Shown: positions 18,953 through 61,790, counted from the first letter of the stretch. The stretch: 64,000 nt of DNA from Rhizodiscina lignyota (GCA_010015805.1 ML978123.1:1178001-1242000); one strand, 5' to 3'. The notes: generated from the letters alone by a model not told the origin. A program made the numbers and translations.

Positions 18953-20460
18953 ATGGCTACTTCCAAGGTTTGAAATATCCCGTTCGCAGCCTTCCTCGTG
19001 TCTAGTGCTAACAAGTCGCCCCCACAGGACGCCGCGATGGCTCGACCCTCGAGCTCGCACCGATTATCTGTCAGTTCAGGCACGTCTGGCGGCGCAGCGC
19101 GTCTTTCACACCCACGTCCTCATACACACTCACTTTCCGTGGGCTCAATCAATTCTGCTCATCGCGTCACCCGTCGGAAAAGCACGTCATCTACTGCCGT
19201 TAATAACGCCGCTGCTATGGCTGTTGCGATGAGAGAGGCTTCTGGTGCTCCATATGATGCGAGTAACGGCACAGCCAAACGTTCCTCGTCGTCCAAATCT
19301 CCTGGAACGAAATACGGTAGCCACCCGTCGCTTCCAAGTAGCCTTCCTAATCACAGCTCGGACTTTGGCCCCAATGGTTATCCAAATGCGAAGAACAATG
19401 TTGCAGTGACAGATGGCCCGCCATTATCGTCGCTTCCAGAGAAAGAGAAAAGTAATGGCAAATCACGGATACGTAGGGCTAGTGAAGGGTCTCGCCTGAC
19501 AAAAGGCGAATCCAAGCGGGGAAATGCTCCCGAGCTGAGATGTGAAAAATGTGGGAAGGGCTACAAGCACAGCAGCTGTCTAACCAAGCACCTGTGGGTA
19601 TCCCTTCGCCTGAGCATTCCGCATACCTTCACATCGAGCAGCTCAACCTGTCTCAGCGCACTCAAGGTAATATTATGAGGAAATGAAATTGACACTAAAG
19701 CAGATGGGAGCACACACCCGAGTGGGCAATCACATCAAAGCTGCTCATTTCGAAGCACCAGCAAGTGCAGTTGCTCGAAGCTGCTTCCGTGCTTGTCACA
19801 ATGAACCAAGACGGAACTCCTACTGAGAGTGATCACTCTTCAGCCTCGCCTGCTGCTTCGGGTTCCACAGACCCTCGTGAGGATGGAATGAGTTCTGCTG
19901 ACACAACGCCTCCGCCTGATGCGAATGCTCCGTACTCCACGAGTCGTCCAGATTTCACGTCGACTAAACGATTCAGCAGCAACAGCAGTGCTTATTCACA
20001 ATCATACCAATCTGTCTTCTCGGATAGTGCATCTGCTGGGCGGCCATATGTCTCGCACTACCGCCAATGGAGCACAGATGGGAGACCAACAACATCTGGC
20101 ACATCTGTGACAGGCAGTTACCGCGATGACGACGATCACGCAGACTTGGCTGCTGCTGTCGGTCTGCTAAGCTGCAGCTACGGGACACCCAAGAGCGGGC
20201 CTGTGATGCTCCCTGCCGATGTCCCTCCGGTCCCGCCGTTGCCCGCTAAATACACTGGCTCGAAGCCTGACACGCTCTCGGGAAGTACTACCACCCTAAC
20301 ACCACAGTACTATTCCGCTACAGGTCGCAACTTTTTCCACCCGGATAGGAAAGACATAGATATGGACGATCGTAGCATGGCTGATGAGGATTCTGACCAT
20401 TATAATCGTATGCGGAACTACGAGGAGGAAGAAGGCGTTTTCGGCAAAATGGAGGAATAA
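18953..20460 (+). CDS. single C2H2 zinc finger protein
   Basis: MATSK|DAAMARP (intron 18968-19027). CEKCGKGYKHSSCL TKHL|WEHTPEWAITSKLLISKHQQVQLLEAASVL across an intron at ~19595-19703. Confidence 0.85.
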
Positions 20461-21272
20461 CATTTCCAGTTCTGGCGTCACAAGATTGAAACTGTTCTCC
20501 GTTCGCGGCGTCCTCTGTATTGGTCTCACCGTCTCCGTTCTTTTCGACTTTTGAAAAATCAACTGTTCCGTTTATACGGGCGCCTGGCTCCGCACCCATC
20601 TTCGCAGCACCAAGGAGAAGGCTTTTGGGCCAACCGCAATCAGGAGTGGCCGCTGCAGCTTTTGAGGTTAAAGTGAGGAGGTGGCGTCTCGAGCGTCGAG
20701 CCGGCTGTATGACGACAAGATCCGCTCTTTTATCTGTCTTTTTTTCTATCACATCAAAGGGACGCGCGTTTGCTGGCAGTAACGCGGCGAGCGGAATACG
20801 ATCAATGTGGATGTAAAATGAAAATATTTACGCAAAAATATGCTCCCAGCCCTGAACAATGGCGTCGGCTGTGCTTGTATACTCGATGTCGTTTGAGGGC
20901 ATTAGGATAGGACTTTCTAGTCAATCGAGCGATCGTCTTTTCAGAAATGATAATCTCCTTGTACATGAGACGTGCACCACGCTTTGGTGAAACCATCTCC
21001 CACGCACCACCAATGCATCGTCCTCCCTCGTATCTTCAAGCACAGACGTGCAGATCAGCGTTTTACAGCATCGTGAGTCTGGGCTTGATCGTCCTCTTTG
21101 ATCGTCCTCCTAGTCGTCGATGGATCCTTGTGCAAGCGGCTCACTGCATCCGTTGGTAAAGCTTGGCATCGCTGCCGCTTTTCGCCGAGATCCAAAGTTC
21201 GGACGACAGTCCAACACATCTTCACACGATCCTCTTCATATACCATCGATCTGAGCCTTCAAGCATCGCAAA

Positions 21273-21732
21273 ATGGCCTCCGCAATAGCAATAGGCACTG
21301 GAATCGCAGTTGCCGCCTTCCTGGTGCGTTTCCCCTTAAAATCAAGGCGATATCGACCTCGCGCCGCTGCGCAAGAAAAACTTGACTGACTGGTTGCAGG
21401 GCCGCGCAGGACTCATTGCGTTGAGAAGATCAAGAGGATCCGCATTAGGCAGATCGTTCTATAAGGGCGGCTTTGAGCCGCGCCTCAACAGACGCGAGGC
21501 GGCGCTGATACTGGAGATCCCGTATGTCTTGCTCTTGTCGCCGACTTTGATATGAAATATTGAATAAATAGACTGACTCATGATGTGTTTGTGTAGGGAA
21601 AGAGGAACAACGAAAGAGATCATTCGCAAGAAACATCGGCAGCTGATGCTGCTCAATCACCCTGATCGCGGAGGAAGCCCCTACCTCGCGAGCAAGATCA
21701 ACGAGGCGAAAGACTTTTTGGAGAAGAGTTGA
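21273..21732 (+). CDS. PAM18: mitochondrial import motor J-protein Pam18/Tim14 (absent from the ORF track because of short exons)
   Basis: [27 protein letters not shown]...[25 protein letters not shown]...[35 protein letters not shown] motif; 2 introns. Confidence 0.95.
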
Positions 21733-21927
21733 AAGCTGCCGGGTGCAAGGAGAAGCTTTAGTAAACACTGTAAATGTGGCATTAGCGTGGCGTTGCGGGC
21801 GTGTTCATATTGCGGGAATTTCGAGCATTGCGTGAGTGCTGTTTGAGAGCGGGAGGCGGTCAGGATCAATCACCACTTAAGATACCTTCAAACAAAATGG
21901 GGACGGGGAAGAAATAATGGAGCAGAA

Positions 21928-23228
21928 CTTTGGAACAGGAAGTATACCTGAAAATGGCCTTGGTTGCCTCAGAATTCTTTAAATTTGGGACATTACTCTC
22001 ATACTCAACCTCACCTATTCTATATGTGTCTTTGTTTCCTTGATGTATCGAAGAGCAAGGAAGCAGAATTTCCCTTCGCCGCTGGGACAAGAGAAAGAAG
22101 TGCAAATACTGCAGCCGTGTTTGCTGAAGTGGTGGTCAATTATGGTGGTGGGCGACCATAGTAAGTGTGCTGCTGCCAGCTGAAATGCGGTCTTAAAAAC
22201 TTACACATATATACAAGGTAGATTTGAGCAGGTCTCAAGAGAGCAGATTGGTCAAGTGGGCACATGGAGTATTCTCCATAACAATTATACCGTACTAACG
22301 GTTCTTGGTTAGTGCCAATTTGACCATTCGGCTCTCTTTCAATCATATTATGGTTTCCCTCTAGCTTGCTCCGGCGATGCATATAGAATCAGCCATATAT
22401 GATTAAAAGCCAAAAAACCCCCTCTAGCTTGCTTCGGCGATGCATATAGAGTTCTAGTTAGGCTTCTAGACTAAGTGGTTTCTCAACCATCCAATACCGG
22501 AAACGGTAGAGGGTGGTTGAGTTTTGCTGTTTTTTTTGGCCAAATTCGGCTTAACTTCCTTGCACTAAGTCAAGCCACAATGTTGTTGTACTGGTAATCA
22601 GAACGGAGCAGGTTCGAACCTGGGCCTCGCCAGTATTCCTTTTCTTTTTTTGCATTTGAAGTTCTATAGAAGCCTAACAAGCACGTTCTCGGTCTTTTGG
22701 GCCGGTTATTACCTTGAATCTGCTCTTAGGTCAAACTGATGCTTTTATAGCGTTTCACTTCTTTTTCAGCATGGTGCTCATGTTATCACATTTGTTACTC
22801 AGTTGTTACAGTCTGCTTCCAACTGCTCTTGCAAAGTTGGCCAAATTTGCCATGTTTTGAAGACTTGCAAAAGACATTGCGCGATCAAAGGAGCACTCTT
22901 GAGTCCTCTCCCTGACCCATTCACTCTCCTTTGAAGTTTTGGCCATGTTTATTCCCAAATTCAACGCGCCTCTTTGTTGGCAAATCCCCGCGACCAGGTG
23001 GTTTGTTTCTGCCGCGCCCAAGTTTGCGCCCACAGTGCCAAGTCTTATCGTACTGACCTCTAATTCTGATCGAGCAGAGTAACAATTCCTTTGGCCCACT
23101 AAAACAAATTGCAAATAACCATGACTAGCCTTACACGATTTAAAGTAGAGGCACCGCGTCAACACAACGAGGACTTAACTCTCCCACTTCACTGCTCTCA
23201 CAACCAAAGAACACGAACTGTTTCAAAG
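21928..23228 (+). ncRNA. candidate large structured non-coding RNA (~1.3 kb), family unidentified
   Basis: About 20 mutually nested helices of 6-17 bp with G-U wobbles on the + strand, C(UUCG)G, C(UCCG)G and G(GAAA)C tetraloops, and no credible ORF. See findings. Confidence 0.6.
22357..22450 (+). repeat. 31-bp direct repeat, two copies (22357-22387, 22420-22450), each a UNCG hairpin
   Basis: CCCTCTAGCTTGCT(C/T)CGGCGATGCATATAGA; the single difference lies in the tetraloop. Confidence 0.95.
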
Positions 23229-24582
23229 CGTAGCCATCCACAGAAGCATCGCAGCTATTAAAAACAGGTAAGACACATTCCCGAAGAGCGGCCTCATTCC
23301 GATCAACAGTTACCAAAATCCCCATCCTAAAGAGCAACGCACCGGTTCAGAGCCAGCGCCTTGCAGTAAATCCTCCGGCACCTCGGCGACATATTTGATC
23401 AAGTTTAATCGACGCAGCGTCCGAACATTCGCGAAGCACCACCTGTGAGGACAGCCACTACATTTGCCTCGACGGATTGTGGGCCGGGCCTAGGCCATAC
23501 ATACATAAGGGGGGGCTGGAGCAGTGCCGAAGGATGGTTTAAAAGATGTTCATGAGAATCCAGATGAGCAAGGTCATCTCCAGACGCTTCATGTTCTTGC
23601 GAATGTTGATCACTAGTGGTCTAACATGGGAGGGAAGAAGTGAAACGATAGCTGCTTATGACTGGCGAGGTGGGAACTGACAGCCTCTCCTTCAGATGAC
23701 GACTGCGAGAGTGATAGAGGTCGAGACGTTCCAAACAACGTTGGTGCGCATGACAATGCGCAAGACGGTTTGCAACGACTTGGCTGTCTAGCATCCTAAC
23801 TTCTCAGACGTTAGGCTGGTTTCAGCGTTCGATTGCCTTCGTGCGAGTGGGACTTCAACTTCAACTCGACTACGGCTTTAATAAGCCCTTTCATCTCTAA
23901 CTATCTGCGCTTAAAGGCCCTTACTGACTGTTCTTGTGTATATCTCAGCCACGACGTTGCTTCCCACGATACATGCCGGAACCGGCCGTTCGCAGTTCGG
24001 CGGCGGTCAACCAGTAGCCTCCGTCTCAACCACCACCGCACTTTACAGTGAAACCTCCTTACTATTCTTTGTGCCTCTTCATCACAACATTCTCATACAT
24101 TTCTTCATCAAGACGTGGTAGCACTGTTCGGCCTGCCCTGGTCTCTCCTGGTCCAATCCGCGAAATGCACGTGGATAACGAACCAGATACCAGCGTTCCT
24201 CGGAAAATCTCACATCCTCGCAGCGCTTCAGTCACCGTGGTCGGGAAGCGCGAACGGAGTTCATGTCAGCAAATCAATGAAACAGACGTGGATGACGAAG
24301 CAGATACCCGCCTTCCCCTTCAATGGCACCAATTCTTGAAGTTATACGCCTTGTCATTTAAAATGGCAAACTGAATTTGGTTCATGAAACCAGTGAAGGA
24401 TTTGGCGGAGAGACCTCTCCCAGAGTATTCAATGCTCGTGAAGCACTCCTGAATGTTGACACTTCTATTCACAGGGATTGTCACCTCTTATTACAGGACG
24501 AGAGGATAAAACATTATGATAATCACTGATAGGGAACAATGCAAAGTGCAGAACCAGCATTAGATATACAACCCAACGACGC

Positions 24583-25902
24583 TCAATACCCTCTGTTTAT
24601 CTTTCGAAGAGTCTCCACGTACCCAATGTATCCCTTCTTCTTCTTCTCCTTCTCCTTGCCCTTCCTCTCCGAGTTTCCTTGGCCCTCCGCTTTTGATGCG
24701 GATTCAAACCCGAAATTAAATCCCGTCGCGAGATTAGGCATCTGGAGCGTAGGCTCTGGACTCTTCATCTTGGAGTGTGAGTCCGACGCCGCAACATAGT
24801 TGGAACCCATCGACAGCCTATCGGTCATTTCGATATCCCCATCCATATCTTTTGCTAATTTCGCACGGGTAGGGGGGCTTGGAGGACCTCCATCGCTAGA
24901 GCTTGAGTCTGACTCGTCTTGCTCGAGGACAGGGGCGAGTGTAAGAGGAGAGGAGACAACTGTTTTTGACGAGCCGACGCTCTTGCGACGTGTGGCAGAA
25001 GCCAGCAAGGCTCCCCAGAATGCTTCTTTCTGCGGCGGGGATGGCTCGCTACCGGATTGATCAGCACTCTTATTCTGCGTGGGAGATAGATCGATGTTCT
25101 CGAGAATGGTGTCGAATGTCGTTGCGGGCATCGCAGTCTCCATGATTGGCTCTTCTTGCGGAGGCGAAAGTGGTGTGACAGGTTCCGAGAACTCAGAAGG
25201 AGAGGAAGTAGTTGGCTTAAGCGCTGGTGTCGCGGGCGCCGTCGGTGTCTTCTGCTGCCGGAACTGGGCTCCCCATCGACATTCGCTTGGGTAGTCGCAC
25301 CTGTGCCAGCAGTCCTTCTTCTGCGCTCCGGCAGCAGTTTGCTGCTGCTCGTCGCTCAAACGACGTTCGACCCGCCACTGCATGCCCAATCCGAGAGTGT
25401 TTGCACTGTTACCGTCCTCCTCCTCTTCTTTGGCGATCATGTCTCTGACAAACTTCCTAACTTCTTCTTCATTCCTGCGCCAATCGCCCCACGCTTTCCA
25501 GCCTTGGTAGTCAAACTCACTCGAGCACGCCTTATGGCGCCGAACGACTCGCGTTCGCTCGCCATTCCTCCCACGCTTGGTCTTCACCACCGTTGTGCCT
25601 GCACAGAAGTGGTGACCGTCTTCGAGACATCGGCGGGTGACGCCGAGCGGATATCTGATATGGCAGACATGGCACTGCCAGACCCAATTGAGCGGCGATT
25701 TCGGAGGAGACACTGTCGGTGCTATATTCGTGCGACTGCTCCATGATACAGATGCGGAGATGTTCGCTGCCTTCAAAGATATCGGAACAGGCGGTGGAGT
25801 TATTGGAAGTTGCGGAGAGAAGGGCGAGACAGGGATAGCGAGATTCGAAGAGCGAAAAGGAATGGCTGAGATCGCGAGGTTGGCGATCCGTGCTTTCTTC
25901 AT
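24583..25902 (-). CDS. hypothetical protein with Cys/His-rich motif and S/P-rich tail
   Basis: Long ORF with first ATG at 25902 (MKKARIANL). WQCHVCHIRYPLGVTRRCLEDGHHFCAG...CSSEFDYQGW...DCWHRCDYPSECRW. Confidence 0.8.
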   Translation of the reverse strand: MKKARIANLAISAIPFRSSNLAIPVSPFSPQLPITPPPVPISLKAANISASVSWSSRTNIAPTVSPPKSPLNWVWQCHVCHIRYPLGVTRRCLEDGHHFCAGTTVVKTKRGRNGERTRVVRRHKACSSEFDYQGWKAWGDWRRNEEEVRKFVRDMIAKEEEEDGNSANTLGLGMQWRVERRLSDEQQQTAAGAQKKDCWHRCDYPSECRWGAQFRQQKTPTAPATPALKPTTSSPSEFSEPVTPLSPPQEEPIMETAMPATTFDTILENIDLSPTQNKSADQSGSEPSPPQKEAFWGALLASATRRKSVGSSKTVVSSPLTLAPVLEQDESDSSSSDGGPPSPPTRAKLAKDMDGDIEMTDRLSMGSNYVAASDSHSKMKSPEPTLQMPNLATGFNFGFESASKAEGQGNSERKGKEKEKKKKGYIGYVETLRKINRGY

Positions 25903-57092: not shown

Positions 57093-58178
57093 AATGACAT
57101 TTGGTGATGAAAGTAATGACATTAATGATAATCGTAACGTTGTTGGTGATGGTGAGGGATGAGTTAGAGGCTCTTGGGACTCATTTGTATACCCAAACGT
57201 TTGGCAATGTACCGTTCTAGATTGGCCTTTGACATGTTGCTCTAATATCTTCACGGCTGGGCAGCTGAGTTGATATGTCACTCGTGCATTATTCGCCGTC
57301 GCGATGAAGGCGGGAGTCTTGTCTCGTCGCGCGGAGTCACCTGCCTGGGTGAGCAATCTCTATTACTACTCTACATCCTGTTTTTTTACCTTTCGATTGA
57401 TTTTGGACCCTCAATTGCATCGCCAATGCCTTGACGCTCTGTTGATAAAGAACGCTTCGAATCCACTTCCACCTGGCTTGCAAGCTACACTTTCCTAATC
57501 CGGACAGCTTGCCCTCAGTCATTAGAGCTTCTAATATCATCTTCATATCTAACTTGACCTCGGATATCGCCTCGCCGATGATAGAAAATACATTGTGCCA
57601 AACAGGATATGGAAGAGCGATACTTTTGGACCAGCTCAAGCCTCACCGCCGCCACCTCTTCCGGCGCCGCCAAGAATGGCGGCTCCGCGCACTCTTCTCT
57701 TTGGCGAGGCTACCTGCAGAATGCAGTGTACGCGACTTTCACGCGCACTCTTCAACGCGTGATCGACACGCGCCTATCTGTCATTGATGCCTAGATTCAC
57801 TCGCTCTCCTCTCTTTGATCTACGACGAGTACATGGGTTTGCCTTTTGCTTCACCGCAACTTCCTTTATCTGTTTGCGTCGCTACCACTTCCATCAGCTG
57901 AATGTACTAGCACTATTGTCATTCACAGTCAAACCACATGGTATTGCTCTTCACAGTTGCTAGCACATGTGGCTGATTCACTTGCAAAGCCTCACAAATC
58001 TTTGATCACATGTTAGAACATATTTGGGAGTGAATGTCGAACCTTCTTCGGGTGAACACCGGTAGTTCCAGGCTGCGACTCTTTATGTAAGTATATATTC
58101 TTCTGTTTTTCAAGCTTTCTTCATTGTTTCTGATTGCTGGTTCTTTCTGGGCAGTAAAGAAAAGAAGCCGAGACTCGG

Positions 58179-61100
58179 ATGACGGAAGGCATGGCGAAGC
58201 ATCTCCACCATCAGCCAACATACAACAAGCGAACCGCTTCCGAAGTCGCAGCCGAGGAAGATCAATTATCTGATCATCAACTCGACAGACCATCGAAGCG
58301 ACAAGTCGTTGACTTCGTAGAAGCGCCACCATCTTCATTTCCCAGGTCGCAGTTCTCCGGTCACTCGTATCACCTGCCAGCGAAATCGGAACCAGATGCT
58401 CTGCGATTGCTGAAGAGTGAATGGGAGCGCCGACGCCAGCCCAAGACTGCCGCTGCGGAGGATGAAGAGTCGCAATGGATTATGTTTGAATTGTCCGACT
58501 TCACCATCTACCGGCCTAAGATAATAAGCGATAATAAAGGATTCGACCATAGCTTCGAAATGGAGTCACTAAACTTTCTCAAATCGAAAGTCCAGATCGA
58601 TGACCTCCTGTTCGATGGAGTTCTATCTTATGGTAGTACCGTCGCCTATGTTGAATGCATTCCCTTCTCCATTCTCGCTGTCGAAGGGTATGGAGATCTG
58701 GATCTTGCGTCCGTCGCAGGAAATATCACCATACAGTCTGATCTCGCAAAGACAACTGATAATCGGATCTGGTATCGATTATGCAAACCTTCTGGCTGGT
58801 ATAAGAGATACCATGATCCCTTCCTTTGGATTGCGGATCTGACAAAGCACTGTATGGACTTCATCTGCAACAATGAAAAACCAGCACTACATCACTTTGG
58901 CTCTCAGTTCCAGCAATGGCTGCGAAGAACACATAAGAACAATCCTGTGTTCTTAACCTGGCTCTCAAAGGCACCATCGCTAGACTTCCGCGGCGCGATC
59001 GTGGCGAACTTTGAATACCTCTGGAAAGAGTATCACAGTCTCGCCGGGCAGTCCATGGAGTATCCCAGAGTTTCGCAGCTGCCTCTCTGGAGTGAAATAA
59101 TGCCAGAGCGGCTAGGCGCAATCAGGAGACAGCCACTAGTCCAGAAGGAAACCGTGGTGACACCTTACGTCTACGAATGCTTCAAAGAAACGTTCTTCGG
59201 CAAGGTTCTCAAGCCACAGAAGCCTAGTCCGGTCGTCGAATCCGAACGTAGTCAACACATCAAATCCTTGAAGTTCTCCCCTTCGCCGACTGCCTCATCC
59301 ACCCAGGACTACCTTAACAACTTTTCTCGTTCAACGACGAACCTCACTATCAAGATTGGAGACGTCGTCGGTGTCCCGCGGGATCTCAAAACGCGGTGGA
59401 AAGACTGCGCGACTCTGTGGTTTGCTTATGTCCAAGAAGTCCAGAAGACGAACAACGGGGATAACCTTCTTAAGGTGATATGGCTCTACAGACCCTCGGA
59501 CACAACGCTCTCGAACATGTACTACCCAATAAAGAACGAACTCTTCATTTCCGACAACTGCAATTGCGACGACGGCGCATTTCGTGAATCGGATGTTGTT
59601 TGCAAGCTTCCAGTGGAGTGGTGCCCAACTGATCTAGCTCGGACCAAAGGTGTCATTATCAGACAAAAGTACCTCGCAGGAAGTCACTCCTTCGTCTCAC
59701 TGAAGATGTCTGATCGCACCTGCCACTGCAAGACACATCAAAAAGAAACCCCGTTCCTGACTGTTCAACGAGATTACGAAATTGGCGACTCCGTTTATGT
59801 TCGGCTGGGAGGTTTATCTGCGGAAGTTTCCTTGGAAGATATTCTGGAGCCTGCTGTAATTGTGGGCTTTGACGATGACACTCGAAAAGTCGTGGTGCGT
59901 AGACTTCTACGAAAGAACCGCGACCTCGGCGACTCTGCTGCCGCAGCGAACGAACTGGTCTGGACCGATACCAAGGAATCAGTGTCTGCCAGACGTGTCG
60001 TAGGCAAGTGTTACATTAGGTTCTTTACACAAAAGGTCGTTGACTCCGGGGAGCTTCCGTTGCCTTACAACCGAGGCGGCACTGGGCATTTTTGGTACAT
60101 TACAAGTCGTCTCCGGAATGATGACAAGACAGAACCTTTTGGCCGCACTTTCCCCAAAGGTCTGAATCAAGCGCTCGACATAGCATCGCGTCCGAAACGT
60201 CTGCTGCACGGATTGGATCTATTTTGCGGTGGTGGCAACTTTGGGAGAGGACTGGAGGAGGGTGGAGCGGTGGAGGTGAAATGGGCCGTGGAGATTGCTG
60301 GAATTCCCCTTCATACATATAAGGCCAACCTGAAGGATCCCGATACTACAGAACTTTTCTGGGGTTCTGTAGACGATTATCTCCATTCCGCTCTCATGGG
60401 AGTAAGCTCTAAGGTCATCGCAAGAGTTGGAGAGGTACAATTCACCGCCGCCGGTAGCCCGTGCCGGGCGTTTTCTATCGCACAAAACAACAAACTATCG
60501 CCAAAGTCTGTCAAAAACGCATCACTGGTCGCGTCAGTCGCCGCATTCATAGACTTGTACCGCCCGGAGTATGCCATTCTGGAGAATGTGAAAGGCATGG
60601 CACATGCTTGTAAGGCTTTTCCAGGCCAGAACATCTTCTCACAGCTACTTTGCTGCCTTGTGGGAATGGGCTATCAGGTGAATCAATTTAACATCGACGC
60701 GTACTCATGCGGAGCTCCCCAGGCTCGCTCTCGACTCTTCATCGTGCTGGCTGCTCCAGGCCTACCGCCAATCGAACATCCGCAACTATCTCACGCACAC
60801 CCTCCCGAAACGAACAATTTGTCGCTTGGCAAGGCAGCGAACGGTGAGACCTTTGGGGATCGCAAGTTCGGCCCAACACCACTCCCATTCGTATCTGCTG
60901 CGGAAGCTACAAAAGATCTCCCCAACATTTACGACGACAGAGTGGGTTCTTGCATTGGATGCCCGGATCACCGCTCTCCGATAGGCAGCACCAATCTCAG
61001 CCGAGCACGGATCAAGCTGATTCCGACCTTTCCGAGAAAGTCGTCGTTCCGTAAAGCTATTGATATGGGAGTGATGGGCCAACTGCAGATTGACGACATG

Positions 61101-61790
61101 AAAAGCTGGAAATCAAAGGTGCGGACTTCTGAAAATGGCAAGATGTGGACTCGAATCCATCCTGATAGACTGATACCTACCATCACCCGGAAATTATGCG
61201 CTGCCGATGGACACACTGGAGAAGCTCTGCACTGGCGAGAGCATCGGACCTTGACTGTCATGGACGCCCGCCGCGCGCAAGGCTATCCTGATCACGAGGT
61301 CCTTATTGGGAGGCCGAGCGATCAGTGGGCGACAGTGGGCGATGCTGTGTCAAGGCACGTAGCTTTGGCTCTTGGCCTGTCTCTACGCGAGGCATGGCTT
61401 GGGAAGTTCGACGGCCATGACTCCGCGAGAGGCGTCGGCAGCAATAGCACGTCAGTCCCAGGGGCGCAGTCGAAAGAAGGTCGCTTGCAAAACGGCGGCA
61501 CGATGGAGAGATCCCTTGATCGCCAGGGTGATGGTTCGCAGGCCAAGTTCGCAGACCTCGTTCGAAGCAGGCTACCCGAGGAGGAAAATTCTTCGCTGGG
61601 CAGGTCTAGTCTGGTGCCGGTGGTGACGATACCGCGGCGCGCAGTCCATACCGCCGCCAAGAAAGAGGAGAGGACGTCAACACTTGAGATCTCGGGGTCC
61701 AGGGAGCATACGAGCACAGCTGCAGGGTCAAGGACGCAGAGGACACACGGTTGGGGTAATCTCCATATTGCGCACACGCAGGGGATCTGA
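58179..61790 (+). CDS. dim-2: C5 DNA methyltransferase DIM-2 (two BAH domains plus MTase domain)
   Basis: BAH-like WFAYVQ..VIWLYRPSDT..ELFISDNCNC; motif I DLFCGGGNFGRG, motif IV GSPC, motif VI ENV, motif VIII PQARSRLF, LTVMDARRAQGYPD. Confidence 0.92.
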   Translation: MTEGMAKHLHHQPTYNKRTASEVAAEEDQLSDHQLDRPSKRQVVDFVEAPPSSFPRSQFSGHSYHLPAKSEPDALRLLKSEWERRRQPKTAAAEDEESQWIMFELSDFTIYRPKIISDNKGFDHSFEMESLNFLKSKVQIDDLLFDGVLSYGSTVAYVECIPFSILAVEGYGDLDLASVAGNITIQSDLAKTTDNRIWYRLCKPSGWYKRYHDPFLWIADLTKHCMDFICNNEKPALHHFGSQFQQWLRRTHKNNPVFLTWLSKAPSLDFRGAIVANFEYLWKEYHSLAGQSMEYPRVSQLPLWSEIMPERLGAIRRQPLVQKETVVTPYVYECFKETFFGKVLKPQKPSPVVESERSQHIKSLKFSPSPTASSTQDYLNNFSRSTTNLTIKIGDVVGVPRDLKTRWKDCATLWFAYVQEVQKTNNGDNLLKVIWLYRPSDTTLSNMYYPIKNELFISDNCNCDDGAFRESDVVCKLPVEWCPTDLARTKGVIIRQKYLAGSHSFVSLKMSDRTCHCKTHQKETPFLTVQRDYEIGDSVYVRLGGLSAEVSLEDILEPAVIVGFDDDTRKVVVRRLLRKNRDLGDSAAAANELVWTDTKESVSARRVVGKCYIRFFTQKVVDSGELPLPYNRGGTGHFWYITSRLRNDDKTEPFGRTFPKGLNQALDIASRPKRLLHGLDLFCGGGNFGRGLEEGGAVEVKWAVEIAGIPLHTYKANLKDPDTTELFWGSVDDYLHSALMGVSSKVIARVGEVQFTAAGSPCRAFSIAQNNKLSPKSVKNASLVASVAAFIDLYRPEYAILENVKGMAHACKAFPGQNIFSQLLCCLVGMGYQVNQFNIDAYSCGAPQARSRLFIVLAAPGLPPIEHPQLSHAHPPETNNLSLGKAANGETFGDRKFGPTPLPFVSAAEATKDLPNIYDDRVGSCIGCPDHRSPIGSTNLSRARIKLIPTFPRKSSFRKAIDMGVMGQLQIDDMKSWKSKVRTSENGKMWTRIHPDRLIPTITRKLCAADGHTGEALHWREHRTLTVMDARRAQGYPDHEVLIGRPSDQWATVGDAVSRHVALALGLSLREAWLGKFDGHDSARGVGSNSTSVPGAQSKEGRLQNGGTMERSLDRQGDGSQAKFADLVRSRLPEEENSSLGRSSLVPVVTIPRRAVHTAAKKEERTSTLEISGSREHTSTAAGSRTQRTHGWGNLHIAHTQGI

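Follow-up and report, generated by a model that had tools for sequence, protein, structure and literature searches.

A single-copy hairpin and inverted-repeat patch in the spacer downstream of a PAM18-like gene of Rhizodiscina lignyota, most likely a DNA-level palindrome patchwork

Fungal milRNA precursors have a general hairpin form, and a branched tip is unusual among them. Stems can also originate at the level of DNA: replication template switching makes reverse-complement copies, and with them perfect stems in one event (Monttinen and Loytynoja, PMC8794818). In structured RNAs, according to the same article, a helix consists of runs of 2-10 bases. Further work on template switching argues that a DNA-level origin is compatible with later RNA use, in that case for miRNAs (PMC10710096). 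For telomerase RNAs (TERs), Kuprys et al. (2013, PMC3603654) give a template of more than one telomeric repeat with a CCCUAA core in 13 of 13 TERs of the Aspergillus group, and a conserved 3' motif, CGGC3-5U7-12. Here, we describe the computational analysis of a non-coding locus in Rhizodiscina lignyota, located in a 64 kb window (GCA_010015805.1 ML978123.1:1178001-1242000; the window is the whole stretch of DNA analysed, and all coordinates are window positions). A first-pass annotation had proposed that positions 21928-23228 encode a discrete, three-armed + strand RNA of ~1.3 kb, possibly a telomerase RNA or an enlarged RNA of the RNase P/MRP type. The real feature is a ~480-nt single-copy hairpin-repeat patch, 22220-22700, in the spacer that separates a PAM18-like gene from a convergent one. 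This core is most likely (at a probability of roughly 55%) a DNA-level palindrome patchwork made by local duplication and inversion, lying in a 2.85 kb ORF-free spacer and without demonstrated function.

Introns in the window are short, beginning with GTGCGT or GTATGT and branching at CTGAC, and the G+C content is ~50%; from these intron signals and the G+C content, the window appears to be that of a filamentous ascomycete. The genes on either side of the spacer, and the spacer itself, are as follows.

21273-21732, + strand: PAM18-like gene, read from the sequence, with three exons (21273-21323, 21400-21521 and 21597-21732) and its stop codon at 21730-21732
21733-24582, unstranded: ORF-free spacer of 2.85 kb, ending at the stop codon of the convergent 439-aa ORF
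24583-25902, - strand: convergent 439-aa ORF, without a Pfam match

Exon 3 of the upstream gene, a J-domain exon, has a fragmentary Pfam DnaJ match (E 7e-5, short of the gathering score) and a weak Pfam match to Pam16, and relatives of this exon are encoded by 336 metagenome stretches; the name PAM18 given to the gene at first pass is therefore reasonable. The spacer is about twice the length of the 21928-23228 interval, and its description as a gap with no credible ORF is borne out: the longest stop-to-stop frames in 21733-24582 are 122 aa (- strand) and 118 aa (+ strand), and 0 of the 19 frames of at least 60 aa match Pfam at E 0.1 or better.

Folding of the proposed 1.3 kb RNA was compared with dinucleotide shuffles, with z computed from the MFE on each strand separately. 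The interval 21928-23228 folds to -387.7 kcal/mol on the + strand, against a shuffle mean of -344.9 (z -5.08; 0 of 60 shuffles as good), and to -379.4 kcal/mol on the - strand, against a mean of -357.5 (z -2.45; 1 of 60 as good). Viewed in isolation, both this strand difference and the pairing itself speak for the three-armed model: all 14 of the helices listed for it exist where they had been placed (0-3 non-pairing positions each), the named hairpins and their UCCG, UUCG and GAAA loops are present as described, and the MFE fold contains the 11-bp closing helix. The model divides into a core and two flanks.

21928-22219, + strand: 5' flank, with the closing helices and hairpin 22031-22067; folding at chance level
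22220-22700, unstranded: core, a series of consecutive hairpins and inverted repeats and the sole part with excess folding energy (z -5.98 on the + strand, -5.69 on the - strand)
22701-23228, + strand: 3' flank, with arm C and the closing strands; folding at chance level

When the core was kept intact and the two flanks were dinucleotide-shuffled separately (n=36 per strand), the native 1301 nt gave z -0.98 on the + strand (5 of 36 controls as good) and z +1.26 on the - strand (33 of 36 as good), which contradicts the three-armed model. Folded alone, the 5' flank 21928-22219 shows no excess (z -0.42; 62 of 200 shuffles as good), nor does arm C, 22768-23100 (z -0.89; 19 of 100 as good). Since the flank-shuffle and flank-alone tests are both at chance, the closing helices, the 12-bp closure of arm B and arm C itself are chance pairings; the long-range helices are what any 1.3 kb sequence of such composition provides, and the flanks, rather than the structured part, account for the global z difference between the strands. 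The earlier statement that the interval folds beyond shuffled controls thus holds for 21928-23228 overall and fails for its flanks, the excess being restricted to 22220-22700. A discrete 1.3 kb three-armed RNA is accordingly very improbable. Long-range helices picked by eye around a strong core can mimic a large structured RNA, and this locus serves as a control case, in which shuffling the flanks with the core kept is needed before a large RNA architecture is claimed. A giant undescribed fungal ncRNA, perhaps a telomerase RNA, would have been notable; that reading is unsupported.

Searches for known families also bear on the large-RNA model. Rfam 15 covariance models gave 0 matches at the gathering score in the entire 64 kb window. 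With E up to 10, region 21500-24700 gave 2 matches only (E 5.7 and 7.7) and region 22200-22720 gave 5 (E 1.3-8.6; miRNA, snoRNA and plastid models), and in the 521 nt of the latter region the RNase P, MRP, SRP and telomerase models were without a match even at E 10. The lack of any known RNA family, proposed from the sequence at first pass, is upheld by this Rfam search, and the core is therefore not, by that test, a member of the RNase P, MRP, SRP, snRNA, intron or ribozyme families. A CCCUAA-type template is likewise absent, as had been noted, though one is reported in 13 of 13 Aspergillus-group TERs (PMC3603654): no 8-nt permutation of CCCTAA occurs in 21600-24700 on either strand, where telomeric-repeat 8-mers are found with 1 mismatch only and never exactly (the query was CCCTAA, which may not be the repeat of the host). 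CCCTAA itself is absent from both strands of 21000-24700, the nearest copy being at 20294, inside an ORF. The motif CGGC3-5U7-12 was not seen by eye in the spacer. A telomerase RNA was rejected on the absence of a template.

Several shorter signals were also considered. On the + strand, 22162-22312 contains GTAAGT (22162), TACTAAC (22293-22299) and TAG (22310-22312), a set that should turn up by chance about once in every ~3 kb; immediately upstream of it, an Sm-type U tract is lacking, and a spliced small ORF over the GTAAGT...TAG signal was discarded on reading the sequence, as a stop is reached after three codons. ARAGORN found 0 tRNA genes in the 64 kb window. The A-box pattern TRGYNNARNNG and the B-box pattern GGTTCGANNCC are consensus forms of Pol III promoters. 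A Pol III unit (TATATAC at 22208, an A-box-like TGGTCAAGTGG at 22249, T8 at 22531-22538 and GGTTCGAACC at 22611) was rejected, with 0 matches to the B-box consensus GGTTCGANNCC and A-box words at chance (66 matches versus 54 expected). A resemblance between short words in the core and SRP RNA motifs was considered and is unsupported: with E up to 10, the search gave nothing from the SRP models.

The folding excess of the core is sharply placed. On the + strand and likewise on the - strand, 0 of 100 shuffles of 22220-22700 fold as well, and in 200-nt sliding windows over 21601-24600, z falls below -4 only at 22201-22400 (-4.8 on the + strand, -4.3 on the - strand) and 22401-22600 (-4.3 and -4.0); outside 22201-22600, the z of the windows in this region ranges from -2.8 to +2.2 for either strand. 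The excess over shuffled controls is thus a property of 22220-22700 only, shared by the two strands. In a + strand scan of the full 64 kb (639 windows), 3 windows remained at z <= -4 after refinement, namely 22201, 22401 and 58701; two of the three are in the core and the third, 58701, falls within a 1210-aa ORF. The core is the strongest non-coding folding outlier of the 64 kb window, and, of the 22 inverted repeats ranked strongest across the window, 4 are within 22004-22684. The proposal of an unannotated structured non-coding element after PAM18 therefore survives in its strong folding and in its lack of an Rfam family, and is given up in its 1.3 kb size and architecture. The parts of the core are the following.

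22237-22338, unstranded: hairpin A, a 27-bp stem (23 Watson-Crick pairs, 1 G-U, 3 mismatches) with its tip branched into two 5-bp mini-hairpins
22341-22404, unstranded: hairpin B, with outer stem AATCATATTATGG / CCATATATGATT around copy 1 of a 31-nt repeat and a UCCG loop on the + strand (z -2.9 on the + strand, -1.7 on the - strand)
22357-22387, unstranded: 31-nt direct repeat, copy 1, inside hairpin B
22420-22450, unstranded: 31-nt direct repeat, copy 2, which is hairpin C, with a C-UUCG-G loop on the + strand (z -1.4 on the + strand, -0.75 on the - strand)
22441-22468, unstranded: patchwork site 1, 16-mer TGCATATAGAGTTCTA then 12-mer GTTAGGCTTCTA, by sequence comparison with site 2
22451-22684, unstranded: domain D, 18-nt inverted arms (22451-22468 / 22667-22684, 16 of 18 complementary) around 198 nt
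22482-22521, unstranded: hairpin within domain D of 11 + 5 bp, found by folding, with a GAAA loop on the + strand and UUUC on the - strand
22588-22636, unstranded: weak hairpin with the palindrome CAGGTTCGAACCTG (TTCGAA) at its apex (z -2.3 on the + strand, -0.9 on the - strand)
22651-22678, unstranded: patchwork site 2, TGCATTTGAAGTTCTA then TAGAAGCCTAAC, by sequence comparison with site 1

Three of these elements fold on the two strands as follows: hairpin A (102 nt) at -48.5 kcal/mol and z -8.3 on the + strand and -43.5 kcal/mol and z -7.5 on the - strand, the GAAA hairpin at -27.4 kcal/mol and z -7.6 (+) and -21.9 kcal/mol and z -6.5 (-), and domain D (234 nt) at z -4.7 (+) and -4.1 (-). 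No tRNA was found at the weak hairpin 22588-22636, and the B-box consensus as searched has no match there.

Direct and inverted copies adjoin one another in the core. The two copies of the 31-nt repeat, 63 nt apart from start to start, are identical at 30 of 31 positions, and the single difference is in the loop. The 16-mer at 22441-22456 recurs at 22651-22666 with 13 of 16 bases identical (chance about 4e-6 at fixed register); at site 1 it is followed by GTTAGGCTTCTA and at site 2 by the exact reverse complement of GTTAGGCTTCTA, and these two 12-mers form the heart of the domain D stem. The first 10 bases of the 16-mer are the end of the 31-nt repeat, so that this motif is present three times. 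In a further instance, 22240-22249 is found inverted at 22717-22726 (10 of 10), and after a 2-nt offset there is a direct match of 7 of 10 to the sequence that follows the first copy.

The strand on which such a structure would act was assessed by wobble pairs, loops and energies. A bias of non-Watson-Crick positions to G-U on the + strand had been taken at first pass as a sign of selection on a + strand RNA, from a helix list that accepted G-U and rejected A-C and is thereby biased toward that strand. Counted over all pairs, G-U makes up 13 of 156 on the + strand and 5 of 144 on the - strand, versus 21.4 and 15.3 in shuffles, a difference without significance once the high T content of the + strand is considered. 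On each strand, the shuffles contain far more G-U pairs than the native fold, and the stems are therefore unusually rich in Watson-Crick pairs, as expected for reverse-complement copies made at the level of DNA. The + strand folds better in 6 of 6 tested elements, by 2.5-9 kcal/mol or 0.3-1.4 z units, and it has one GNRA tetraloop (GAAA) and two UNCG tetraloops (UUCG and UCCG, copies of one repeat), compared with 0 GNRA or UNCG loops on the - strand; we estimate the chance of such a set at ~0.03 for one strand. Where the two 31-mers differ, at one position, the UNCG loop is preserved (UCCG versus UUCG). Of the argument for selection on a + strand RNA, the tetraloops and the slightly better + strand folding remain as hints, and the wobble bias, together with any advantage of the + strand in the z of the core, has fallen away. 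The strand evidence is weak either way.

These hints bear on a working RNA made from the core or from part of it. If transcribed from the + strand, it might act as a milRNA-type precursor whose hairpin A would be cut by Dicer into small RNAs, as a structured ncRNA of ~300-480 nt confined to this lineage, or as a structured element within a long 3' UTR or read-through transcript of PAM18. The z-scores of the core (about -6) and of hairpin A (-8.3), the rank of the core as the strongest non-coding outlier of the window, its single copy, the uniform + strand advantage and the GAAA, UUCG and UCCG loops found on that strand only all agree with such an RNA; hairpin A, at 102 nt with a 27-bp near-perfect stem, is shaped like a small-RNA precursor, and the best Rfam matches, which are non-significant, are to miRNA precursor models. 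Against this, the two strands do not differ in z-score, the G-U bias lacks significance, and the patchwork of direct and inverted copies suggests a recent mutational origin; moreover, nothing similar was found near PAM18 in 80 fungal loci (blastn, nhmmer and two single-sequence covariance models), although these fungi are too distant for that to weigh much. We regard a working RNA of one of these kinds as possible but doubtful. A more specific version, in which a lineage-specific + strand multi-hairpin RNA of ~300-480 nt (22237 to ~22540 or 22700), capped by GNRA and UNCG loops, was born recently by template switching and duplication and is either a small-RNA precursor or a new structured ncRNA, is tentative and on balance unlikely. 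Evidence of transcription and processing would make the core a candidate hairpin RNA gene of de novo origin, caught early in a filamentous fungus.

Relatives of the locus were sought in 80 PAM18 loci from metagenome contigs, a comparison set of fungi too distant for non-coding conservation or covariation. With blastn (word size 9, E 1e-3, and word size 7, E 1) and nhmmer, no nucleotide similarity to these 80 loci extends past the coding sequence, all matches ending by 21735. Even the PAM18 3' UTR fails to align in the 80 loci, and the lack of matches tells little about how conserved the spacer is among congeneric species. None of the 80 loci carries the downstream 439-aa gene, and 4 have a weak match to an upstream ORF. 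Of the 41 loci with at least 2.5 kb downstream of PAM18, 36 have their next frame of at least 120 aa beginning no farther than ~900 nt away; in the remaining 5, this frame starts beyond 1.2 kb, with gaps of 1.3-2.2 kb. A long spacer free of ORFs behind PAM18 is therefore not the rule. A z-scan downstream of PAM18 in 7 loci gave 1 of 169 windows at <= -4 (in L019), whose fold has no visible resemblance to the core. Covariance models built from single sequences, one for hairpin A and one for the GAAA hairpin, recovered in 500,734 bases nothing but their own sources and two matches at E 8.8 upstream of PAM18 (L059 and L061). In the literature, no paper was found on a noncoding RNA downstream of PAM18 in fungi.

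Alternatively, the core could be what is left, after decay, of one small non-autonomous transposon or several, with domain D as a MITE-like element and hairpin A as a miniature foldback. Domain D has the size (234 nt) and the inverted ends (12-18 nt terminal inverted repeats) typical of MITEs, the nesting and close succession of the hairpins recall insertion clusters, and the long spacer is lineage-specific. The dispersed copies that a foldback transposon would have left were looked for and not found: 1 of 15,746 contigs (34.2 Mb, one run) covers 21700-24600 at >=80% likeness, in one 107.5 kb piece, and there is no second copy at that likeness in this set, which is a near-identical run, possibly the window's own source, and from which copies of <80% identity would escape. 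Nor is there a copy elsewhere in the 64 kb window, except for the internal 31-nt repeat, or in the 80 fungal loci. By eye, no convincing target-site duplication is present at 22451/22684 or at 22237/22338, that is, at either element, though inverted ends are present. RIP-type indices also speak against a relic, with (CpA+TpG)/(ApC+GpT) at 1.22-1.31 and thus not elevated; RIP was rejected on the same values. A transposon relic is improbable on this evidence.

For the reading that we prefer, a DNA-level palindrome patchwork, we infer an origin by template switching or duplication and a lack of function. Small tandem duplications, together with replication template switches or in-place inversions, would have copied nearby sequence as its reverse complement, and such copying would create long Watson-Crick stems in single steps. 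The complementarity would then be a by-product: either strand, if transcribed, would form the same hairpins, and a cellular role would not be implied. We favor this DNA-level origin because the folding excess is confined to the core and equal on the two strands, with nothing added by the flanks; because the stems are long and poor in G-U (the 27-bp stem of hairpin A with its 3 mismatches, the 18-nt arms of domain D); because direct repeats abut inverted copies (the 31-nt repeat, the 16-nt repeat with its 12-mers, and 22240-22249); because the core is without an Rfam family match; because a long gap behind PAM18 is not conserved; and because of the scarcity of windows at z <= -4 downstream of PAM18 in the seven other loci. 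By analogy with such events, a direct repeat that adjoins an inverted copy is probably the product of duplication with in-place inversion or of replication template switching. Counting against the DNA-level reading are the + strand advantage in all six elements, the tetraloops confined to that strand and the UNCG loop kept in both 31-mers, as well as the standing of the core as the strongest non-coding outlier in 64 kb, with no multi-copy or TE signature to explain it. A stem born in DNA could moreover be taken up as RNA afterwards, as template-switch work argues for miRNAs (PMC10710096). Read as a DNA-level patchwork, the core shows that a few local duplication and inversion events can lift a non-coding spacer to a folding z near -6.

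Compared with known systems, the locus resembles the telomerase RNA genes of filamentous ascomycetes in its large non-coding gap, its Pezizomycotina-like genome, its U-rich and A-rich tracts and, at a frequency expected by chance, the GTAAGT...TACTAAC...TAG series on the + strand, and differs from them in having no template and a folding signal of only 480 nt. Like MITEs and foldback transposons, the core has a domain of 234 nt with inverted ends of 12-18 nt (domain D) and a foldback of 102 nt (hairpin A); unlike them, it is single copy in the 34.2 Mb of contigs, with no target-site duplication seen and no relatives in the 80 fungal loci. Hairpin A shares with fungal milRNA precursors an intergenic position and a 102-nt stem-loop with a nearly perfect 27-bp stem, whereas it folds on both strands and has a branched tip. 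Set against template-switch repeats as described in PMC8794818 and PMC10710096, the core is read from one sequence, in which any four-point switch event is putative, and its 31-nt tandem-type duplication requires a second mechanism; it is like these repeats in its near-perfect stems in unique non-coding DNA and in its inverted copies, which lie next to their source.

Scanning of the 64 kb returned a single 200-nt window with a folding z-score of -4 or lower, measured against shuffled controls, besides those of the core (22220-22700, the single-copy hairpin cluster in the spacer downstream of the PAM18-like J-domain gene). This window, at 58701 (z -5.4), scores -3.4 (+) and -2.3 (-) when 58680-58920 is folded as a 241-nt stretch, and lies within a long open frame:

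58158-61790, +, open frame of 1210 aa enclosing 58680-58920

The structure is therefore part of coding sequence. Among the seven PAM18 loci of other fungi that were scanned, the single strongly folding spot 3' of the gene (L019, 4900-5260; z -3.3 over 361 nt) consists of a 14-bp hairpin followed by the stretch GGGATTCGAACCC, whose sequence suggests the 3' half of a tRNA in reverse complement; the spot shows no resemblance to the core.

Splice-like signals overlap hairpin A (22237-22338, within the core), whose tip contains the branch site:

22162, +, GTAAGT, canonical splice signal
22293-22299, +, TACTAAC, branch site signal
22310-22312, +, TAG, canonical splice signal

Correctly ordered, these delimit a would-be intron of 151 nt (22162-22312, +) that joins no ORF; chance alone would supply about one set of this kind in the spacer (21733-24582). 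A 16-nt inverted pair (22748-22763 / 23635-23650; 15/16 complementary, 871 nt apart) is not part of the 21928-23228 RNA proposed by the first-pass annotation and, given its length and distance, is likely due to chance.

The right half of the spacer (23230-24582) has a coding-like G+C content of about 0.50-0.51 and might hold a small or multi-exon unannotated gene. Neither its 95-aa frame nor the 118-aa frame listed below matches Pfam:

24018-24374, +, frame of 118 aa, no Pfam match

In PAM18 itself, the 3' end of intron 2 seems to be conserved among the fungi of the five closest metagenome loci (L001-L005), because their protein match extends into its translation (21577-21597), reaching query residues 1-3 onward, which are intron-derived. 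Downstream, 37 nt 3' of the stop codon, lies TGTAAATG (21769-21776, +), which we take to resemble the Puf3-type motif found in 3' UTRs of mRNAs that encode mitochondrial proteins.
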